A stretch of DNA of 64,000 nucleotides from Candidatus Parcubacteria bacterium (GTDB lineage: Bacteria > Patescibacteriota > Minisyncoccia > Minisyncoccales > JAGLUP01), in contig JAGLUP010000004.1 in assembly GCA_023134715.1 (NCBI GenBank), positions 1,301 to 65,300 of the forward strand. Direction: 5' to 3'. Below, piece after piece: positions 1 through 60,578 of the stretch. Each line of letters starts with the position of its first letter. Position 1 is the first letter of the stretch. The notes under the pieces are model-generated. The model was given only the letters and a program-made list of their open reading frames with translations. It had not been told where the DNA came from and made no database searches. A program made the position numbers and the translations under genes.

Positions 1-3000
1 TTGAGATGACCAATGTCCAAGCTCTTTAAACAAGGCGCAGTCAATGTTTAAATCTCCGCCCGAACTAACATTTACATCGCTTTGATAGCTTGCGGAATTT
101 GTTTCTTCAATAACAGCGTTTCTGGTTAAGTTGATAATATAAGAGCCAGTGACATGAGTGTTGGAAAGATTCCCGGTTAAAGTAATTGTTGTTCCCGAAA
201 CACTTGAAATAGTCATTTTTTCTGATTCTCCGAAAGAGTTGCCGCCAACTCCGAGAATATCACCGGCAACCCAGCCGGTTGTATCTGAAGTTATTAAATC
301 AGCTTGACTTGAAGTAGCGTTTGAAGCAAGGGTTGTTTTATAATAACTAAGAACAGCCCCATACATATTTAAAGCCCCGCCGCTATTAACAGTTAAATCG
401 CAGGCGTCATCAGCGCTTGAATTAAATTTAAGAGCCGCTGTATAAGAAGACCCGATTCTGGCTCCGGAAGTTCCAATGCTCAAAGTCCCTGTAATAGAAG
501 TTGTACCGTTAGTAGTAAGAGAAGTATCAGTACTGTTAAGAAAAGTAAGCGTGCCGCCAGAGTTTATTGTCAAGCTTGAGGAGGTAGCGTTGCTAACATT
601 TACAGTTACAGTATGAGTGTCTAAAATTGTAACATCATCCGCTGAAGTTGGAACCACTCCGCCGCTCCAAGTTGAGGTTGCGTCCCAGTTCCCAGTTTGA
701 GCTGAAGATATTGCCGCGTCCACGGCAATCTGCCACGAACGAAGCTCCTTAAACACTAAACTGTCACTATGAAATTCAAGAGGTCCCAGCAAATATAAGT
801 AGGGGCTGATGTCTGGCGCGTCAAATTGATATTTTAATTCATACTCTTCCCCCGCTTCCCAATCAACCTGCCATATAATTTCTTTTGTATTTTCGTGTGG
901 TTTCGTGTTCAGTTTCGTGCCTGTTTCGTGTACTACCTCAAAGCTCGCAGGCGCACTTTCTATTACCTGCCCGACGAAATCTTCATTCGCCTTAATTTTT
1001 AATGTTACCTCATAAAACGCCGGGGGATAAATCCTTGTCGGCCCGATTCTCTCAACATCAAAAGCAACCGATTCACGAACCTCAAAAGAGTCAAAAATTT
1101 CACGAACGCCGTTTCGGGTAATCGCTGTTAAATAGAGCTCATATAATCCCAACTCATCCGGGATATCATAATATGCATAGTAATCAGGGGTATTGGTAAT
1201 AGTGCTTGGCCCGCATTCTGAACTTCTCTGAATTGTTTCGTCTTCAGTTGAAAATTCCTTCTCAACTCCTGCCGGACTTTTTACTATCAGAGTCAAATCA
1301 GCGTTGCAAATTGTTTTTCCAATATCATCTAGTACTCCCATTTGAATATAAGCAGAGCTGTCACTGCCTGATAGATATATCGACTTGTTTATATTTATAG
1401 CTAAAACCCCCCATGTAAAATCTTGTTCTGAAATCAATATCGCTTCATCAGTTTCAATCTCAATCTCCATCTTCCATTTGCCCGGATAAAAATCTCTTCC
1501 CGGTTTTGGAATTTTTATTTCAAACCCTTGTTTATTATCAATAAATTTAGTAATCACATGGGCTTCAATTAAAGATTCCTGGCCCATAGGGTTAAAAATT
1601 TTAATTCTGAAATTATTCGGTTCTACTTGAGCCGCAACTTGAGGAACAAAAACAATTTTCTTAATTGCTTTTTTCATCGCCCCTATTATTTCCCCGCCCG
1701 CCTGATTGTCCTCAGGACTTTCGGCGGGTTCCGTGGTTGTGGCTATCTCTTCTGTAGTAGTTGCCACTGCTTCCATGGTCTTAGCTTCCTCGCCCGCCTG
1801 ATTGTCCGCCCCGTAGGGAACCGCAGGTTCTCCTTCGGGGTCTGGACTTTCGGCGGGCTCAATAATAATTATTTCATTCTGCGCAGGAGTATCGGTTTCA
1901 AGAATGCTGTCGTCAGGCAAAGCTGGCTCCCCGCCCGCCTGATTGTCCGCAGGACTTTCGGCGGGCTCGCCATCTTCTCGATTAAAAATTGGTTCTAAAA
2001 CATTTTCAATAACTTCTTCAACTATCCCGTCAATAAATTCTTTTATCGGCTCAATTATTGAAGCTGTTCTTGTTTCTTGATTCTTATAAAACTCGCCTTC
2101 TATAATTTCCGCCTCGTTAACATTAACAAGTTCTTGAAGCTGCTTGACTGTAAATTCTGGTTCTTTAATTACAAAAACCGGCTCTTCATTAGAATGAAAA
2201 CTTTTCTCGCCAAGAGGAGAAATCAATAAATGACTATCTTTAATCCTTATTCTTGGCTTGTCTTTTGTGTCGATTTCATGTTTAGTTTCGTTTTCTTTCG
2301 TGTAGCTCGCCTCCACCCAGACACTGTCAAGATAAGCCGTAATATTTGTTTCGCCTCCCACTGTTCCATCAAACTTAATTTTTAAATTTTTAATGCCTTC
2401 TTCACTTTTTAAAAGAGGAGCTTCGTATTCAAAATAGCCATGATTTAAAGCATTAGACAAGGGAGAAGAAGAAATAATCCCGAGCTTATCCCATGATTCG
2501 CCATCTAAGGAATACCAGATAATAATCTTATCATCAATGTTAGATAAAACCTCCGGATGTTCGTCCTCTATATTTTCTTCAGCTTCAACTATTATTAAAT
2601 CTCCAATCCCCTTAACCGCTTCTTCAAATTTGCTTCCCCAAGTTTTAATTCGGCTTATTGATTTTTTGAAAGAATTCCAAAAGCCCACTGGCTCTTCTAA
2701 TAAAATGTCCTGTTCTTTTTCACCAAGAGCAAAAGAAAATTTAATTTTTGCTGATTGAAAAACTTTATTTTCCTGAGCTTGAACTAAACCTATGGAACCA
2801 AAAATATTTTTTAATTCCCTTTTCGCTTTCTCAAAAAATGAAATCGGCTCATCAGAAATTACTGGCTCAGAAATAATTTCATCAGCTGCTTCTATCTCTT
2901 CTGTCGTTGTTGCCTCTATTGTCTCCTCAATAATAATTATTTCATTCTGCGCAGGAGTATCGGTTTCAAGAATGCTGTCGTCAGGCAAAGCTGGCTCCCC

Positions 3001-4047
3001 GCCCGCCTGAATATCTGCCCCGCCTGCATCGCTATGCGAAGCATTGCGGGCAGGAAGATTTTCGGCGGGTTCCGTGGTTGTGGCTATCTCTTCTGTTGTT
3101 GTAGCTATCTCTTCTGTTTCACTGACCTCCTCTATCGCCACATCCTCTTCTACCTCAGTTAATTCTTCCACAAATTCATCAATGCCAGTATCTGTCTCAA
3201 CATCGTCATCACTCAACTCTTCACTGACAAACTCTCCGCATATTAATGTAAGCGCCCCTGTTTTATAAACAGCTGAATTTGCTTCAGAAAAATTATTAAT
3301 ATCTCCATTGGACAAAACATCAGGCGGCCCTTGCGCATTTTCTGAATTTTGCCAACCACCCGTAAATTGAGTCGGATAAAAATTAATAATCTCTGTCTCC
3401 CCTCCTGTAATGGCCGTGATAACAGAATTTTGTAAAAATTTTATAGGAGCAAAACCAGAAAGTAAAAACAATACTACAAAAGCCGCTAAAGCAAATCTCC
3501 AACCAAATTGAAAAGTTTTTATAGTTTTTATATGTTTAATCCACGGGATTAAACAATTTTTAATTTCTGAAATTTGCTTTTTTAATTTTTTAAACGCAAC
3601 TACTTTAAACGCAACCACAGGAATAGGAACTGACACACGTCGGGTCTGTGTTAATTTTAAGGTTTTTCTATTTTTATATTCCATCACTGCTCTTTTTGTA
3701 GTTTGTAAAGAAACTCCAGAATAAGCTTTTCTTCCTTTGAGCTTTCCCTCGCGAATCAAAAAACCAATATAGTCAGAACTATAACCAGAAATTTTTGCCG
3801 CTTGTTTTAAAGAAAGATATCTTCTCCTCAATAAAGAAGAAGAATCTCGGGTAGCGAGATTTTTTGTTTTTTTACAGCATTTTATTATCTCTTTTGGAGT
3901 AATTTTCCAAGAACTTTTAAGAGAAATTTTTCTCCCTTTTATTTTTTTCTCCCGAATTAAAAAACCAATATGGTCAGAGCTATAACCAGAAATTTTTGCC
4001 GCTTGTTTTAGAGAAATATATTTACTTTTTTCTTTGTTTTCTTTCAT
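1..4047 (-). CDS. Giant membrane-anchored surface protein, C-terminus off-window (>=1349 aa)
   Basis: The minus-strand frame appears open from ATG (4047-4045) to the window edge; I translated it only in part by eye. It is probably missing from the ORF track because no stop lies in the window. The N-terminus has two HTH-like repeats (YISLKQAAKISGYSSDHIGFLIREKKIKGRK / YLSLKQAAKISGYSSDYIGFLIREGKLKGRK), then one hydrophobic helix (FGWRFALAAFVVLFLLSGFAPI), then an acidic T/E/D-rich linker. The distal part (SSAQTGNWDATSTWSGGVVPTSADDVTILDTHTVTVNVSNATSSSLTINSGGTLTF) looks like parallel beta-helix adhesin repeats. Confidence 0.8.
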   Translation of the reverse strand, partial: MKENKEKSKYISLKQAAKISGYSSDHIGFLIREKKIKGRKISLKSSWKITPKEIIKCCKKTKNLATRDSSSLLRRRYLSLKQAAKISGYSSDYIGFLIREGKLKGRKAYSGVSLQTTKRAVMEYKNRKTLKLTQTRRVSVPIPVVAFKVVAFKKLKKQISEIKNCLIPWIKHIKTIKTFQFGWRFALAAFVVLFLLSGFAPIKFLQNSVITAITGGETEIINFYPTQFTGGWQNSENAQGPPDVLSNGDINNFSEANSAVYKTGALTLICGEFVSEELSDDDVETDTGIDEFVEELTEVEEDVAIEEVSETEEIATTTEEIATTTEPAENLPARNASHSDAGGADIQAGGEPALPDDSILETDTPAQNEIIIIEETIEATTTEEIEAADEIISEPVISDEPISFFEKAKRELKNIFGSIGLVQAQENKVFQSAKIKFSFALGEKEQDILLEEPVGFWNSFKKSISRIKTWGSKFEEAVKGIGDLIIVEAEENIEDEHPEVLSNIDDKIIIWYSLDGESWDKLGIISSSPLSNALNHGYFEYEAPLLKSEEGIKNLKIKFDGTVGGETNITAYLDSVWVEASYTKENETKHEIDTKDKPRIRIKDSHLLISPLGEKSFHSNEEPVFVIKEPEFTVKQLQELVNVNEAEIIEGEFYKNQETRTASIIEPIKEFIDGIVEEVIENVLEPIFNREDGEPAESPADNQAGGEPALPDDSILETDTPAQNEIIIIEPAESPDPEGEPAVPYGADNQAGEEAKTMEAVATTTEEIATTTEPAESPEDNQAGGEIIGAMKKAIKKIVFVPQVAAQVEPNNFRIKIFNPMGQESLIEAHVITKFIDNKQGFEIKIPKPGRDFYPGKWKMEIEIETDEAILISEQDFTWGVLAININKSIYLSGSDSSAYIQMGVLDDIGKTICNADLTLIVKSPAGVEKEFSTEDETIQRSSECGPSTITNTPDYYAYYDIPDELGLYELYLTAITRNGVREIFDSFEVRESVAFDVERIGPTRIYPPAFYEVTLKIKANEDFVGQVIESAPASFEVVHETGTKLNTKPHENTKEIIWQVDWEAGEEYELKYQFDAPDISPYLYLLGPLEFHSDSLVFKELRSWQIAVDAAISSAQTGNWDATSTWSGGVVPTSADDVTILDTHTVTVNVSNATSSSLTINSGGTLTFLNSTDTSLTTNGTTSITGTLSIGTSGARIGSSYTAALKFNSSADDACDLTVNSGGALNMYGAVLSYYKTTLASNATSSQADLITSDTTGWVAGDILGVGGNSFGESEKMTISSVSGTTITLTGNLSNTHVTGSYIINLTRNAVIEETNSASYQSDVNVSSGGDLNIDCALFKELGHWSSQ
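1697..1728 (+). repeat. GC-rich palindromic element, copy 1 (inside giant ORF)
   Basis: CCCGCCTGATTGTCCTCAGGACTTTCGGCGGG. It has a 6-bp outer stem, an internal loop, a 4-bp inner stem and a triloop. Confidence 0.85.
1793..1857 (+). repeat. GC-rich palindromic element, copy 2 (expanded, nested hairpin)
   Basis: It has the same CCCGCCTGATTGTCC...GGACTTTCGGCGGG termini, with an inserted CCCCGTAGGGAACCGCAGGTTCTCCTTCGGGG hairpin. Confidence 0.8.
1858..1942. repeat. 85-bp direct repeat inside the giant ORF (partner at 2926..3010)
   Basis: The string CTCAATAATAATTATTTCATTCTGCGCAGGAGTATCGGTTTCAAGAATGCTGTCGTCAGGCAAAGCTGGCTCCCCGCCCGCCTGA is identical at both sites. A second ~37-bp repeat lies at 1719-1755 / 3059-3095. 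Confidence 0.9.
1934..1965 (+). repeat. GC-rich palindromic element, copy 3
   Basis: CCCGCCTGATTGTCCGCAGGACTTTCGGCGGG. Confidence 0.85.
3002..3069 (+). repeat. GC-rich palindromic element, copy 4 (divergent, expanded)
   Basis: CCCGCCTGAATATC...GATTTTCGGCGGG with a nested GC hairpin (CCCCGCCTGCATCGCTATGCGAAGCATTGCGGGCAGG). Confidence 0.7.
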
Positions 4048-4157
4048 GCCACATATTTATCTTAAATCTCGAAGTTCGAGATTATCGAGTGCCGAGATTA
4101 TTCTATTTTACCTTGTTTTATAAATCAGTGTCAACTCAATAACTGTGGATAACCTTG

Positions 4158-4212
4158 CCCCGTGAAATCCCTGACATGTCGGGGAAAATCTTTACGATTT
4201 TATTTCACGGGG
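4158..4212. repeat. Three-hairpin GTGAAAT element, copy 1
   Basis: The outer stem is CCCCGTGAAAT/ATTTCACGGGG. It encloses two hairpins, CCCTGACATGTCGGGG and AAAATCTTTACGATTTT. Confidence 0.75.
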
Positions 4213-4320
4213 TCCATCTTAACACAACGATAAAAATGTTAAATAAATAAATATGGCCTAAAAATTACATTGATTGCAAAAAAATCTTCAAAAACGTATA
4301 ATGTATTGTAAAAATAAGCT

Positions 4321-4394
4321 ATATCGGATACATAAAATGCCTTAAATAATATCGGATAAATTAAAATTTAAATATAATACGATTTATCCGATAT
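4321..4394. promoter_or_regulatory. Three copies of the 10-mer ATATCGGATA (candidate operator sites)
   Basis: ATATCGGATA occurs at 4321-4330 and 4349-4358 (direct). The inverted TATCCGATAT occurs at 4385-4394. All lie upstream of the giant gene, whose product begins with HTH-like repeats. Confidence 0.35.
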
Positions 4395-4404
4395 AATAAA
4401 AACT

Positions 4405-4431
4405 AAAAAGAGCTGCTGAGCAGCTCTTTTT
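4405..4431. terminator. Bidirectional intrinsic terminator hairpin
   Basis: AAAAAGAGCTGC-TGA-GCAGCTCTTTTT lies just downstream of the DUF167 gene stop. Confidence 0.7.
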
Positions 4432-4473
4432 ATTATTGTAAAACTATGCGCCCATTCTGATAAGGGTGTATTT

Positions 4474-4686
4474 TTATTTTACTTCAAAAACTTTGTTTCT
4501 TTCTCTAAACCCTTTAATCAATCTAACGCTCTGATTGGGAAAATGTTCTGCTAAAACTTTAATCACCGCTCTGTTCGCTTCCCCTCTTATGGGCGCCTCT
4601 TTTACTTTTATCTCAAAACTGTCCTGAGATTTTTTAATTATCTCTTGCTTTATTGAATCAGGAAAAACTTTTACTTTTATTAACAT
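4474..4686 (-). CDS. DUF167 / YggU-family protein
   Basis: This 70-aa protein carries ...EAPIRGEANRAVIKVLAEHF...VRLIKGFRERNKVFEV, which fits the YggU pattern (G-x-AN ... G-x-x-x-R-x-K). Confidence 0.75.
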   Translation of the reverse strand: MLIKVKVFPDSIKQEIIKKSQDSFEIKVKEAPIRGEANRAVIKVLAEHFPNQSVRLIKGFRERNKVFEVK

Positions 4687-4774
4687 TAATTAATTTTAAC
4701 ATAAAAATAAAATCCCTCAAAATAATTTTATTTGCTTCGCCACTAATTATTTGATATGATGAAGTTGCAGTCCC

Positions 4775-4853
4775 GGAGCGGGGCGGTAAGTTAATTGGCA
4801 AACTCCAGGACCTGTCACTCTTGGAAATGCGGGTTCGAATCCCGTCCGCTCCA
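4775..4853 (+). tRNA. tRNA-Asp(GTC)-like gene, aberrant (possible pseudo-tRNA)
   Basis: The T arm GCGGG-TTCGAAT-CCCGT, acceptor 3' CCGCTCC, D arm AGTT-AATTGGCA-AACT and loop CTGTCAC (anticodon GTC) resemble bacterial tRNA-Asp. However, the 5' acceptor is duplicated (GGAGCGG then GGCGG). The anticodon stem pairs only if the loop is 8 nt (CAGGA-CCTGTCAC-TCTTG). Confidence 0.45.
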
Positions 4854-5092
4854 ATGGGGCTGTTTTTTTAGTTTTCCCCACATTAGGACTTGACAAAATA
4901 TCTGACTCTGTTACACTAAAAGTAAAAGAGTGACAGGTCAAGTTTGCCAAACGGCTTACTGTAACGAAAGGGTCCTCCTCATTTTGAGAGGTCTCTTTTA
5001 TTTTATTCAAATTTGTATTATAATAATCTTGTAATGCTGCCATATTATTGGTGGCTTTTTGATTCAACAAGATTGCTGAAACATTGACAATC

Positions 5093-5227
5093 TCAAATCC
5101 TAACCACTGCCCTATTTGCCTCCCCTCTTATGGGCGCCTCTTTTACTTTTATTTCAAAACTATCCTGAGATTTTTTAATTATCTCTTGCTTTATTGAATC
5201 AGGAAAAACTTTTACTTTTATTAACAT
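5093..5227 (-). pseudogene. Truncated 5' copy of the DUF167 gene
   Basis: MLIKVKVFPDSIKQEIIKKSQDSFEIKVKEAPIRGEANRAVVRI* is near-identical in DNA to 4556-4686. The similarity continues about 35 bp into the upstream region, so the repeat pair is roughly 4556-4721 vs 5097-5261. Confidence 0.75.
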
Positions 5228-5311
5228 TGATTAATTTTAGCATATAAACAAAATCCCTTAAAGAGTTAAGGGATTTTGTTTATTTCTTAATCTTTCTTTA
5301 TTCTAAAACTT

Positions 5312-9270: not shown

Positions 9271-9374
9271 GAAAACGCAGAAAACCAATTTTCTAAATCG
9301 TGGGGCCCCGCCTTGGCGGGGTAGGGCGCGGTTAGGGGGAAACGATTTAGGAAATTAGGTTTTCGGAGTTTTCG
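9271..9374. repeat. Structured intergenic repeat, family A, copy 1
   Basis: A ~30-bp inverted-repeat stem (GAAAACGCAGAAAACCAATTTTCTAAATCGT / ACGATTTAGGAAATTAGGTTTTCGGAGTTTTC) flanks GGGGC-[CCCGCCTTGGCGGG]-GTAGGGCGCGGTTAGGGGGA. Confidence 0.85.
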
Positions 9375-10831: not shown

Positions 10832-10891
10832 CCCTGTGAAATTGTTCCGATTTATCGGAACACCTCCGACTTGTCGGAGGATTTCACGGGG
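10832..10891. repeat. Three-hairpin GTGAAAT element, copy 2
   Basis: The outer stem is CCCTGTGAAAT/ATTTCACGGGG. It encloses TGTTCCGATTTATCGGAACA and CCTCCGACTTGTCGGAGG. The element ends 8 nt from the ATG of the RRM gene. Confidence 0.75.
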
Positions 10892-38757: not shown

Positions 38758-39996
38758 TTAGTAGCCGCGAAGTTTTTTTAGTTTTTCGTGTTCTCTGATT
38801 TTTTGAAGGGACTTGGCTTCAATTTGCCGAATTCTTTCTCTGGTAACGCTAAATACCACTCCCACTTCTTCCAAAGTATGAGTAATATCATCCTTTAAGC
38901 CAAACCTCATTGACAAAATCTTTTGCTCACGCGGACTTAAATCAGATAAAATCTCATTCAATCGCTCTCTTAAAAGCTTTCGCGCCGCGCCCAAATAAGG
39001 CGGAGCTGTTTTTTCATCTTTAATAAACTCTGCCAAAACATTATCTTCTTCTTTTTCTCCAACCGGTGTTTCTAAAGAAATTACTTCTTGAGAAATTTTC
39101 ATTATGTGGCGAACTTTGGGAATACTAAGTTCCATCTCAGCCGCGACTTCTTCTGGCAAGGGTTCCCTGCCCAAGCTCTGCAAAAGCTGCTGCCTAACTC
39201 TGGTATATTTAGAAATTGTTTCCACCATGTGAACTGGAATCCGCACAGTTCGAGCGTGGTCGGCTAAAGCTCTGGTAATTGCCTGCCTTATCCACCAAGT
39301 AGCGTAAGTAGAAAACTTATATCCCCTTCTCCAGTCAAATTTTTCTACTGCCCGAAAAAGCCCTAAATTTCCTTCTTGGATTAAATCAAGCATGGTTAAA
39401 TTTGGCGACCGTCCGACATATTTCTTAGCGATAGAGACAACTAATTTCAAATTCCGCCAAATCATTTTTCTTCTTGCTTCATCGTCTCCCTTTTCAATTC
39501 TTTTAGCTAATTCTTTTTCCTCTTTAGCAGTCAAAGATTGCGATCTGCCAATTTCTTTTAAATAAATTTGAATTGGATCTATTTTTGCCCGGCCTATTGT
39601 TTTAACCGGCTTTTCTGAATCTTTTTTTATTTCTAAAAATTCTTTTCTGTCTTTTATTTCAATTCTTTCCTGCTCTAATTTATAATAAAGATCTTCTAAA
39701 TTTTCAATATTTTGTTCTATATTCGGAAAAAAGTTTAAAATTTCGGCAAGAATAACAAAACCCCGCTGCCTTCCCCTTTTAATTAAAGAAGCGACTTTTC
39801 CTGCGTCTAATTCCCGACGGCCTATTCGCTTTTTAGGTTCTGCTTTTTTAAAAACCTTCTTTTTTATTCTTTTCTTTATTGTTTTTTTCTCTACTTTTTT
39901 CTTGGTCGGTTTTAAAATCTTTTTCTTTTTTTGAAGTTTTCTTGCCCGCCTGATTGTCCGAAGGACTTTCGGCGGGTTGATTTTTTTCTTAATCAT
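38758..39996 (-). CDS. rpoD: Primary sigma factor RpoD with Lys-rich N-terminal extension
   Basis: [13 protein letters not shown], region 4 [24 protein letters not shown]. Confidence 0.9.
39945..39976 (+). repeat. GC-rich palindromic element, copy 5 (inside rpoD, different frame)
   Basis: CCCGCCTGATTGTCCGAAGGACTTTCGGCGGG, read here as [11 protein letters not shown]. Confidence 0.85.
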
Positions 39997-60489: not shown

Positions 60490-60578
60490 GCGAAAATTCT
60501 GGATTTTCTGAGACGCGTAGGGCTCCCTCCCGCCTTGGCGGGAAGGGATAAAGCGCGAAGAAAAGACAGAATTCGAGC
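60490..60578. repeat. Structured intergenic repeat, family B copy 2
   Basis: It has the same backbone as 46331-46428. The apical hairpin is replaced by CCCGCCTTGGCGGG. Confidence 0.85.

Follow-up and report, generated by a model that had tools for sequence, protein, structure and literature searches.

The window analyzed here, i.e. the whole stretch of 64,000 nt from contig JAGLUP010000004.1, belongs to the AT-rich genome of a Candidatus Parcubacteria bacterium, a member of the Candidate Phyla Radiation (CPR). It contains five copies of a GC-rich imperfect palindrome, 32 nt long in its short form, which we call H1. Four of the copies are located in a minus-strand gene for a giant membrane-anchored surface protein; the fifth is in rpoD, the gene of the primary sigma factor. 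The giant open reading frame (ORF) begins with an ATG at position 4047 and extends past the edge of the window. The features discussed below are collected in Table 1.

H1 in the giant gene and in rpoD

On the plus strand the three 32-nt copies have the form CCCGCC-TGATT-GTCC-NNN-GGAC-TTTC-GGCGGG (1697-1728, 1934-1965 and 39945-39976). They differ solely in the 3-nt loop, which is TCA, GCA or GAA. One palindrome spans the entire element: the termini are (A/G)CCCGCC ... GGCGGG(C/T), the arms CCCGCC/GGCGGG measure 6-7 bp and the hairpin has a 4/5-nt internal loop. The two long forms, of 65 nt (1793-1857) and 68 nt (3002-3069), keep the termini and have a further hairpin nested in the loop. The apical loop of copy 1793-1857 encloses the second hairpin CCCCGAAGGAGAACC-UGC-GGUUCCCUACGGGG, with the termini intact. 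Copy 3002-3069 has the variant arms TGAAT-ATCT / AGAT-TTTC (plus strand), in which the inner stem AUCU/AGAU is compensated, and the nested hairpin CUGCCCGCAAUGC...GCAGGCGGGGCAG.

A search with the two-arm pattern found exactly five matches in the window, all of them on the plus strand, with 0.00 expected from 100 dinucleotide-preserving shuffles. A covariance model that was run without filters returned the identical five sites with 43-60 bits and no other match below E = 0.3. The minimum free energy of the RNA is -17 kcal/mol for the short copies and -39 to -40 kcal/mol for the long ones (z = -3.6 to -5.9). With DNA parameters the values are -9.9 kcal/mol for the short and about -22 kcal/mol for the long forms. 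The GC content of the element is 0.61-0.71, compared with 0.30-0.43 across 2-kb sections of the window.

These data confirm the initial annotation of the window. It had given the same positions and sequences, the loop-only difference of the 32-mers, the four copies in one phase of the minus-strand giant ORF and their translations, and it had pointed to GC spikes in an AT-rich gene and to hairpin formation. Two points can be added. The termini are kept in both long copies, as the annotation had stated, but the inner arms vary in copy 3002-3069. The copy in rpoD is indeed a 32-mer that differs in the loop only, but its codon phase is not that of the copies in the giant gene.

All four copies in the giant gene are housed in two acidic T/E-rich linkers between domains. 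They are read in one common codon phase, which gives PAESPxDNQAG in the short copies and the longer peptides of Table 1 in the other two. The flanks of these copies are repeated in a mosaic pattern (Table 1), such that copy 3002-3069 combines the left flank of copy 1934 with the right flank of copy 1697. Because the flanks are common to several copies in this way, the four copies are not independent events. Moreover, the flank module at 1858-1950 ends inside an element arm, which indicates that element and flank were duplicated or recombined jointly. Judged from these repeats, the unit ATTTEEIATTTE-H1-EPALPDDSILETDTPAQNEIIIIE has probably been duplicated or recombined between the two linkers of the protein, and part of the multiplicity of H1 in this gene is most probably segmental duplication. 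A separate direct repeat of 128 nt in the same gene (3698-3825 and 3899-4026, 79% identity) encodes an N-terminal module (YISLKQAAKISGYSSD.IGFLIRE.K.KGRK) which the giant protein has in two copies and at which homologues have the Pfam domain PF12728.

The situation in rpoD is different. The ATG of this gene overlaps the stop codon of dnaG (ATGA), and H1 follows 20 nt downstream of the overlap. Here H1 is read one base out of register with respect to the giant gene and adds a basic peptide of 11 aa to the lysine-rich N-terminal tail of the protein. The same 32-mer DNA hence produces two different peptides in the two genes, which argues against a peptide repeat.

Table 1. Positions of H1, its host genes and associated sequences in the window. 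Scores in bits refer to the covariance model, energies to RNA folding.
Feature	Position	Strand	Remarks
Host gene 1, giant membrane-anchored surface protein	1..4047	-	1697 aa in full, 1349 aa in the window
H1, short	1697..1728	-	PAESPEDNQAG in the giant ORF; 59 bits; mRNA sense CCCGCC-GAAA-GUCC-UGA-GGAC-AAUCA-GGCGGG
Flank module	1716..1773	-	repeated at 3057-3114, 86% over 58 nt; codes ATTTEEIATTTE; starts inside the other element arm
H1, long, 65 nt	1793..1857	-	codes PAESPDPEGEPAVPYGADNQAG; -40.2 kcal/mol, z -5.85; 45.8 bits
Flank module	1858..1950	-	repeated at 2926-3018, 97% over 93 nt; codes EPALPDDSILETDTPAQNEIIIIE; ends inside an element arm
H1, short	1934..1965	-	PAESPADNQAG in the giant ORF; 58.8 bits
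H1, variant long, 68 nt	3002..3069	-	codes PAENLPARNASHSDAGGADIQAG; -39.3 kcal/mol; 43.2 bits
Y, second palindrome family, 55 nt	4158..4212	.	lies between genes, upstream of the giant gene; two hairpins inside an outer stem
Host gene 2, primary sigma factor RpoD	38758..39996	-	412 aa; homologues carry Sigma70 r1_1 to r4
H1, short	39945..39976	-	rpoD codons 7-17, different phase; 59.7 bits

H1 does not correspond to a family in Rfam. A scan of the window at the gathering thresholds reported four tRNAs only and no family matching the element, and a permissive scan of positions 1680-1980 produced only matches at chance level (E of 4 or more). We also considered several known kinds of structured sequence and rejected them. 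A CRISPR repeat does not fit the start-to-start spacings of 96, 141 and 1068 nt, the location inside an ORF and the copy 36 kb away in rpoD. The copies are no intrinsic terminators; they lie within ORFs, and the mRNA strand continues after them with CGGGGA, CGAGGA or CAAGAA, hence with no U-run. The sequences of the internal loop are unlike the GA/AG consensus of a kink-turn. A pair of template and variable repeats of a diversity-generating retroelement was rejected since the variation is confined to the loop and is not adenine-specific. Finally, GAAAGUCC resembles the conserved region of RNase P; the likeness extends over just 8 nt.

Occurrence in other genomes and conservation of base pairing

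H1 is absent, in any phase, from all of the 120 closest homologues of RpoD, which have 66-93% identity. In the protein from L075 (L and P numbers are our identifiers for loci and proteins), which has 81% identity, MIKKK is followed directly by LQK at the site, with no palindrome. The closest relative, L077 (93% identity of the RpoD protein, 83% nucleotide identity over 2.1 kb), has a different palindrome at the tail site of H1. It is a 62-nt element of the Y type, described below, which is in frame and read as VHPVKSPTSRGISPKAKLFNRV.

A similar picture emerged for the giant protein. The H1 peptide occurs in none of its 27 homologues, and the linkers of orthologues with about 50% identity are plain T/E-rich sequence. 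An orthologue (P0122 from L081) contains a related composite hairpin, GACGCC-GAAGG-[CCCCGAAGGAG...CUCCUUACGGGG]-CA-GGCGUC, at the linker position of copy 1793-1857. The nested hairpin is the same as in that copy, and the outer stem has changed on both sides, from CCCGCC/GGCGGG to GACGCC/GGCGTC, so that pairing is compensated. In the linker that can be aligned between the giant protein, P0121 and P0122, the peptide around the element is not conserved. When linker B (101 aa) was compared with 1.84 billion representative proteins, the sole match was the window's own protein. The giant protein of L021 was considered as an orthologue of that of the window and rejected; the likeness between the two is confined to the stretches encoded by the element.

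We scanned one genome per species from 185,579 species, as well as metagenome contigs, with a pattern that allowed loops of 1-61 nt. These scans required an exact match at 20 positions, with 5 more that were two-fold degenerate. Diverged copies are therefore under-sampled and the apparent sequence invariance of H1 is inflated. The pattern matched 23 loci in the species genomes and 51 in the metagenomes, of which about 20 and about 44, respectively, are bona fide; about 54 copies are non-redundant. Altogether about 17 of the 185,579 species genomes carry H1, each with 1-3 pattern matches. Ten matches on high-GC or non-CPR contigs (L005, L008, L023, L033, L040, L048, L054, L056, L060, L063) were discarded as chance, as they had no outer stem or long unstructured gaps and, where scored, reached 28 bits or less with the covariance model.

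The named source genomes belong to Saccharibacteria (the majority), Staskawiczbacteria, Giovannonibacteria, Spechtbacteria and Falkowbacteria; in the NCBI taxonomy they are assigned to Candidatus Saccharimonadota and to separate phyla within the Parcubacteria group. Several of the outside copies are the same as the rpoD copy of the window at every base, including the loop. Independent assemblies recovered identical loci, for example L016/L051, L021/L042 and L012/L043. In 385 kb of DNA flanking the copies the covariance model detected extra copies only within the same host genes, which indicates that the copy number per genome is low. Two pattern matches were obtained from viral contigs, and the one that was inspected (L079) had no outer stem and was judged to be chance. 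The phage and plasmid collections contained no real match; the best was 27 nt from an Agrobacterium plasmid with E = 0.6. A search of a collection of 5.8 billion proteins with variants of the peptide motif was uninformative, with 1374 candidates that share words and none at E <= 10.

Sixteen of the copies are doublets, in which H1 and a second hairpin, H2, are separated by one base. H2 reads CCGCC-(A/U)NAAU-[variable stem-loop]-UUU(G)-GGCGG, and its polarity is that of an inverted H1. The copies form subfamilies, AAUCA singlets versus AUUCA doublets, which are independent of the taxonomy of the host. The interior of copy 3002-3069 (CUGCCCGCAAUGC...GCAGGCGGGGCAG) is found again within H2 of L003 and in L006, and L021 has it in a decayed long form that separates its two H1 copies; distant genomes thus have modules in common. 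In L027 the loop of an H1 encloses a hairpin that resembles an inverted H1, and decayed or nested copies are seen in L021, L055 (a decayed doublet) and L027.

The hosts of H1 comprise more than 25 unrelated protein families, 14 of which were confirmed with Pfam. Among the latter, H1 is at the C-terminal tail of NusA, NusB, the ribosomal proteins bS16, bL19 and bL22 and a TrwB/VirD4-like ATPase (coupling protein). It lies at the N-terminal tail of GyrA, in an N-terminal extension of bL12 (4 species) and in linkers of FtsK and PolA. YebC and a GT4 glycosyltransferase contain it internally, and in NusA it was also found inserted within the N-terminal domain. The remaining confirmed hosts are a TrmB-like regulator and a GSDH-like protein; several large surface proteins are further hosts.

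H1 has the sense orientation in every identifiable host gene. The phase that gives PAESPxDNQAG is used in about 40 of about 43 coding copies, but all three sense phases occur; the third one is that of the GT4 glycosyltransferase, where H1 is read as RRKSGGYSGGRG. The core of H1 in genes is 28, 31, 34, 61 or 64 nt long, i.e. always 1 modulo 3. The exception is a 29-nt H1 in L007, after which the following H2 restores the frame. In antisense direction one phase contains TGA, and the other two yield hydrophobic or cysteine-containing peptides. A doublet of H1 and H2 also lies in the linker of an apparent single-stranded DNA-binding protein (L029, about 1046-1502 of the oriented sub-region), the C-terminal tip of which reads by eye ...NPNDIPF. 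The OB-fold part and the tail of this protein are in different frames; either the gene is truly frameshifted or the assembly went wrong at the hairpin.

Some copies are not in protein genes. The 23S rRNA gene of L009, a member of the Saccharibacteria, has a sense doublet of H1 and H2 within its first 500 nt or so. By our own reading of the alignment this doublet may be located at a junction between 23S helices. The doublet (about 3135-3230 of L009) appears as an insertion of about 75-90 nt near positions 400-440 of the 23S model; the gene, with 3381 nt versus 2925 positions in the model, contains other insertions too. Non-coding copies were found in L003, L010, L011, L018, L025 and L032. The one in L010 (region of about 2968-4509) is downstream of the 3' end of a 16S rRNA gene and near a weak match to group II intron D1-D4, and an ORF in this region resembles, by eye, a LAGLIDADG endonuclease.

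Next we consider which property of H1 is conserved. In 40 distinct copies 96.5% of the cells are paired, compared with 31-48% in controls with slid partners. Changes on both sides of the stem occur at three pairs: CG>UA at the outermost pair (3 times), GC>AU at an inner pair (3 times) and CG>UA at another inner pair (6 times). The observed covariation score was not matched in any of 500 shuffles. The covarying positions are those that were left degenerate in the search pattern. Stem changes that replace P by L and N by I alter the peptide, yet they preserve the pairing. The covariation in the stem hence indicates that base pairing rather than the peptide is kept. Growth of the apex is palindromic as well, as in GUCU-CGC-UUC-GCG-AGAC (L003 and L004, sense strand) and GUCC-GUC-CCU-GAC-GGAC (L018). 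Compensatory changes in DNA palindromes can also come from templated (quasi-palindrome) mutation.

Related palindromes, GIY-YIG genes and tRNA sites

The window contains a second family of palindromes, Y, which is represented by the intergenic element upstream of the giant gene (Table 1). Its sequence has the layout CCCCGTGAAAT[CCCTGACATGTCGGGG][AAAATCTTTACGATTTT]ATTTCACGGGG. The same architecture is found elsewhere: miniature copies with it occur in L069, and the palindrome that is inserted in frame into the N-terminal tail of RpoD in L077, the closest relative, has it too. A remnant of Y lies near 10863-10891 of the window. A possible third family is intergenic, at 9300-9330 and 60515-60560 of the window, with the core (C)CCCGCC-AA/TT-GGCGGG(G). 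This core is inside a longer AT-rich stem, and the outer stem is the only part that it has in common with H1.

Six independent small ORFs of about 85-92 aa (L003, L018, L025, L039, L075 and L082) are bordered by GC palindromes. The GIY-YIG domain PF01541 was assigned to five of them by Pfam scan or precomputed annotation, and to the ORF of L025 by sequence motif only. The GIY-YIG ORFs of L018 and of L025 adjoin an H1-H2 doublet. The one of L003 forms a group with a tRNA gene, with a diverged H1 on one side and an H2-H1 doublet on the other. In L039 the inverted termini ACCCTGTTAAATAA / TTATTTAACAGGGT enclose the ORF; they are the same as those of miniature Y elements. A query with the GIY-YIG protein found no viral relative.

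L075 and L082 were obtained through RpoD and are therefore unselected for palindromes. In both of them a 5' fragment of tRNA-Asn precedes the GIY-YIG ORF, and the D-loop of this fragment holds a perfect GC palindrome. A palindrome placed exactly in the D-loop of a tRNA 5' fragment also occurs in L018 and in L032, the latter having no ORF. In the CPR relatives (L075 13330-13720; L082 1540-1806; L018, L025 and L003) the GIY-YIG ORF overlaps a tRNA gene that lies immediately 3' of it, and the fragment ahead of the ORF is a partial copy of the 5' part of this same tRNA. This layout may be that of free-standing homing endonucleases which target tRNA genes. A group I intron, an idea prompted by PMC13011429, was not supported as an explanation of the layout: downstream of the ORF the tRNA is intact, and none of the intron models gave a match.

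One of the tRNA genes of the window (4780-4853) was reported by ARAGORN as 'tRNA-???' with a 2-base anticodon. It scores 48 bits with the Rfam tRNA model, and the loop CUGUCAC suggests tRNA-Asp(GUC). A direct repeat of 171 nt, with 90% identity between its copies, lies on either side of the gene (4551-4721 and 5092-5262).

The nature of H1

We consider it fairly probable that H1 is a miniature, non-autonomous mobile, horizontally transferred or selfish palindromic DNA element that is tolerated in frame. This reading is based on the fact that the same DNA is present in unrelated hosts and in different phases, that it is sporadic across phyla and that it is absent from close homologues. The subfamilies, which are not tied to host taxonomy, and the nested, doublet and decayed copies lead to the same reading. 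The initial annotation had already interpreted H1 as an in-frame palindromic nucleic-acid element and not as a selected peptide repeat, and our results are in its favor. The phases, the copies in rRNA and non-coding DNA and the covariation of the stem all support a nucleic-acid repeat. H1 is not restricted to one protein family in one frame, and the tabulation of sites shows mostly intragenic copies in sense orientation. The alignment of orthologues revealed no case of a peptide without the palindrome among the 120 RpoD and 27 giant-protein homologues, and the insert of P0122 has a hairpin too.

The following scenario would account for these data. Copies of H1 would be inserted at the DNA level by an enzyme that acts in trans, and only harmless insertions would survive, i.e. 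those which are in frame and in disordered tails, linkers or surface loops of a charge that suits the peptide. The acidic reading PAESPxDNQAG, which is rich in P, G, N and Q, would be kept in acidic linkers and tails and the basic reading in the lysine-rich tail of RpoD. In the giant gene one or few insertions may have been multiplied by segmental duplication or recombination and by the nested insertion of a hairpin into the loop. The antisense phases, with TGA or with hydrophobic and cysteine-containing peptides, would favor the sense orientation; the insertion mechanism itself may add to the complete bias. Insertion might moreover prefer the loops of structured single strands, a preference which is suggested by the apical loops of copies and the tRNA D-loops as recurring insertion sites. 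The most speculative step concerns the enzyme: from the gene neighborhoods a small Slx1/YhbQ-like GIY-YIG nuclease can tentatively be named as a candidate for mobilizing the element or for making the break.

Several results weigh against a mobile element. There is no consistent target duplication; the longest substring common to the flanks averages 4.89 nt, only slightly more than the 4.41 +/- 0.15 nt of permuted controls, and the flanks are of low complexity. Nor could the exact boundaries of an empty site be drawn, since the tails and linkers of the hosts are hypervariable. Compared with what is usual in REP- or MITE-like elements (see below), H1 has very few copies. The exclusive sense orientation, together with the single phase of about 40 of about 43 copies, needs strong selection or a targeted process. 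Furthermore, the intact copies at apparently orthologous sites, which include the N-tail of bL12 (4 species), YebC (5-6 relatives) and the compensated stem in P0122, suggest constraint or homogenization and not neutral decay. The exact-match scans also belong here, since they miss diverged copies and make conservation appear higher. An autonomous partner with H1 termini was not found. A GIY-YIG ORF was not detected in the window by a motif scan of ORFs of at least 60 aa, a type of scan that also missed the Pfam-confirmed ORF of L075. The link between GIY-YIG genes and palindromes is one of adjacency only.

Among the alternatives, a selected structural module comes first. According to this explanation, which we regard as unlikely, the hairpin has a cellular function, and its sequence is held by a conserved binding protein. 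It could stabilize mRNA or block RNases close to the ends of genes, make ribosomes pause between domains, or act as a recombination hotspot through which surface proteins diversify. The covarying stem would be understandable on these grounds, and so would the composite hairpin with its compensated outer stem at the same linker position in P0122, a protein with roughly 50% identity. The copies in bL12 and YebC have stayed intact in place while their flanks diverged. Gene ends and the linkers between domains are where copies concentrate, many of the hosts work in transcription and translation, and recombination at the elements could have produced mosaic flanks like those in the giant gene. However, a functional module would not be expected to occur as sporadically as H1 does, with about 17 carriers in 185,579 species genomes and none among the homologues of RpoD and the giant protein. 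Nor does it fit with the existence of decayed copies, with the inconsistent positions in the hosts (N-tail, C-tail, internal loop, rRNA and intergenic) or with the different palindrome at the RpoD site of the closest relative. No Rfam family matches, and the exact-match search inflates the conservation at orthologous sites.

It is improbable, in our estimation, that H1 lacks mobility of its own and was either captured as filler DNA in the repair of double-strand breaks or copied by gene conversion or homing, with the border of a GIY-YIG or tRNA cassette as one possible donor. In that case the copies would be traces of former breaks rather than of transposition. The lack of a consistent target duplication, the low copy number and the few direct repeats of variable length (12 nt in L012, 9 nt in L055) are in line with this idea. 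The same is true of the palindromes that lie precisely in the D-loops of tRNA fragments beside GIY-YIG ORFs (L018, L032, L075, L082), and the GC clusters in yeast var1 are reported to spread by unidirectional gene conversion (PMC8811140). Random filler, however, would not yield the same 32-mer in unrelated genes of several phyla, and it leaves the AAUCA/AUUCA subfamilies and the nested insertions in the apical loop unexplained. A donor locus is missing from the window.

That PAESPxDNQAG is simply a short linear motif or peptide repeat under selection in the protein, with the hairpin as a by-product, is very improbable. The motif is hydrophilic and disorder-promoting, is found in tails and linkers, and is encoded in the same phase by most of the coding copies. 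Yet the same DNA gives other peptides in RpoD and in the GT4 glycosyltransferase, the nucleotide identity across phyla extends to third codon positions, the stem changes P>L and N>I keep the pairing, and the surrounding peptide is not conserved in the one linker that can be aligned (P0121, P0122). Because all three phases are used and copies exist in rRNA and non-coding DNA, this explanation is effectively refuted. An artefact of assembly or sequencing, or a contaminating synthetic sequence, can practically be dismissed: H1 is short, GC-rich and hairpin-forming and was seen in many independent metagenome projects, but it is in frame inside long ORFs, has natural variation with compensatory changes and nested and decayed forms, was recovered at identical loci from independent assemblies and has no match in phage or plasmid collections.

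If the interpretation of H1 as a mobile element is confirmed, H1 would be the first described family of intragenic palindromic elements of the CPR and among the smallest elements known that are common to lineages at the phylum level. Full-text searches of the literature brought up nothing on the DNA sequence of H1, nothing on the peptide and nothing that combined palindromic or repeat terms with CPR, Patescibacteria or Parcubacteria. It would also mean that minimal genomes tolerate selfish or recombinogenic DNA in core genes (sigma factor, NusA, NusB, gyrase, DNA polymerase I, ribosomal proteins and 23S rRNA). H1 would then be a concrete source of innovation in linkers and tails and of mosaic rearrangement in giant surface proteins, and it would mark the exchange of DNA between co-living CPR lineages. 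The pairing of GC palindromes with tiny GIY-YIG genes beside tRNA genes offers a testable candidate for mobilization, for which we know of no described bacterial precedent. Doubtful is the most far-reaching proposal. It states that H1, H2, the nested modules and Y constitute a hitherto undescribed class of ultra-small CPR hairpins (about 30 nt), which might be mobilized by small Slx1/YhbQ-like GIY-YIG enzymes, cross candidate phyla, prefer loops of structured nucleic acid (tRNA D-loops, rRNA and the apical loops of other copies) and create linker peptides in essential proteins (RpoD, NusA, GyrA, PolA and ribosomal proteins) as well as expansion segments in rRNA. In practice, metagenome-assembled genomes of CPR bacteria may suffer from H1-type hairpins, which can interrupt the assembly and lead gene callers and repeat annotation astray.

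GC clusters, Rickettsia palindromic elements (RPEs) and repetitive extragenic palindromic sequences (REPs) each have at least one defining feature that H1 lacks; it is a member of none of them. By analogy of behavior, the GC clusters of fungal mitochondria (Saccharomyces and other yeasts) appear as the closest match. They are short GC-rich palindromes in an AT-rich genome and mostly intergenic, but they also occur as optional in-frame insertions in var1, a ribosomal-protein gene (PMC8811140). Substitutions in them are biased to the loop; the clusters merge, shuffle into composites and act as recombination hotspots, and they are highly variable among yeast mitochondrial genomes (PMC8811140). 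The AG/TAG repeats at their ends are seen as target duplications, and in Neurospora mitochondria GC palindromes flank tRNA genes (PMC8811140). H1 is likewise a GC-rich palindrome of an AT-rich genome with in-frame copies in genes, including ribosomal-protein genes, and with copies at tRNA and rRNA genes. It also resembles the clusters in its loop-only differences, nested and doublet forms and mosaic flanks. Unlike them, it resides in bacterial chromosomes (in the window with dnaG-rpoD and tRNA genes, and in Patescibacteria relatives). It has a much lower copy number per genome and occurs as the same 32-mer across candidate phyla, and AG/TAG repeats were not seen at its copies. The likeness is hence one of behavior and does not make H1 part of the family.

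The genes which host RPEs are often essential, and the inserts leave the protein compatible with its function. Typical of RPEs are a length of about 100-150 bp, a conserved peptide of about 30-50 aa, dozens of copies per genome and a restriction to Rickettsia. RPEs are palindromic and lie in frame in a large number of unrelated genes, whose products gain a conserved peptide (PMC10969869). They measure about 150 bp and form ten families, with 44 copies in one Rickettsia genome (PMC10969869). H1 shares with them the in-frame location in many unrelated ORFs and the addition of a conserved peptide. It differs in its size of 32 nt (11 codons; 65-68 nt when nested), in having only a handful of copies per genome, in its spread over several candidate phyla and in the use of three phases and of rRNA. 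The analogy with RPEs, which the initial annotation had drawn, therefore holds for behavior (in frame, in many genes) but not for size and composition, in which REPs and especially GC clusters are closer.

REPs are described as extragenic, usually with >100 copies per genome, and as being mobilized, like REPINs, by RAYT (Y1, IS200-like) transposases (PMC3733652, PMC2817692, PMC3116915); most have a GTAG or CGTC tag at one end (PMC3733652). With REPs and REPINs in this description, H1 has in common a length within 20-40 nt, an imperfect palindrome with an asymmetric internal loop, and doublets of opposite polarity (H1-H2). It differs from REPs so described in being mostly intragenic and low-copy; it starts with CCCGCC, and the alignment contains neither a GTAG nor a CGTC tag. 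A RAYT was noticed neither in the window nor in the loci, and no ORF similar to a Y1 transposase was seen among the ORFs inspected near non-coding copies; a systematic scan for RAYT with hidden Markov models was not made.

Elhai and colleagues reportedly described small dispersed repeats in cyanobacteria, which are said to measure a few tens of nt and to be nested in one another. H1 is like these in size and nesting and unlike them in taxon and sequence. A transposable element of the miniature inverted-repeat type (MITE) is a further model; H1 has terminal inverted repeats with arms of 6-7 bp. A candidate for the autonomous partner which is a feature of such elements was seen for Y only: the GIY-YIG ORF of L039 is bracketed by the termini of the miniature copies, and this arrangement resembles, as far as these termini indicate, a pair of an autonomous and a miniature element.

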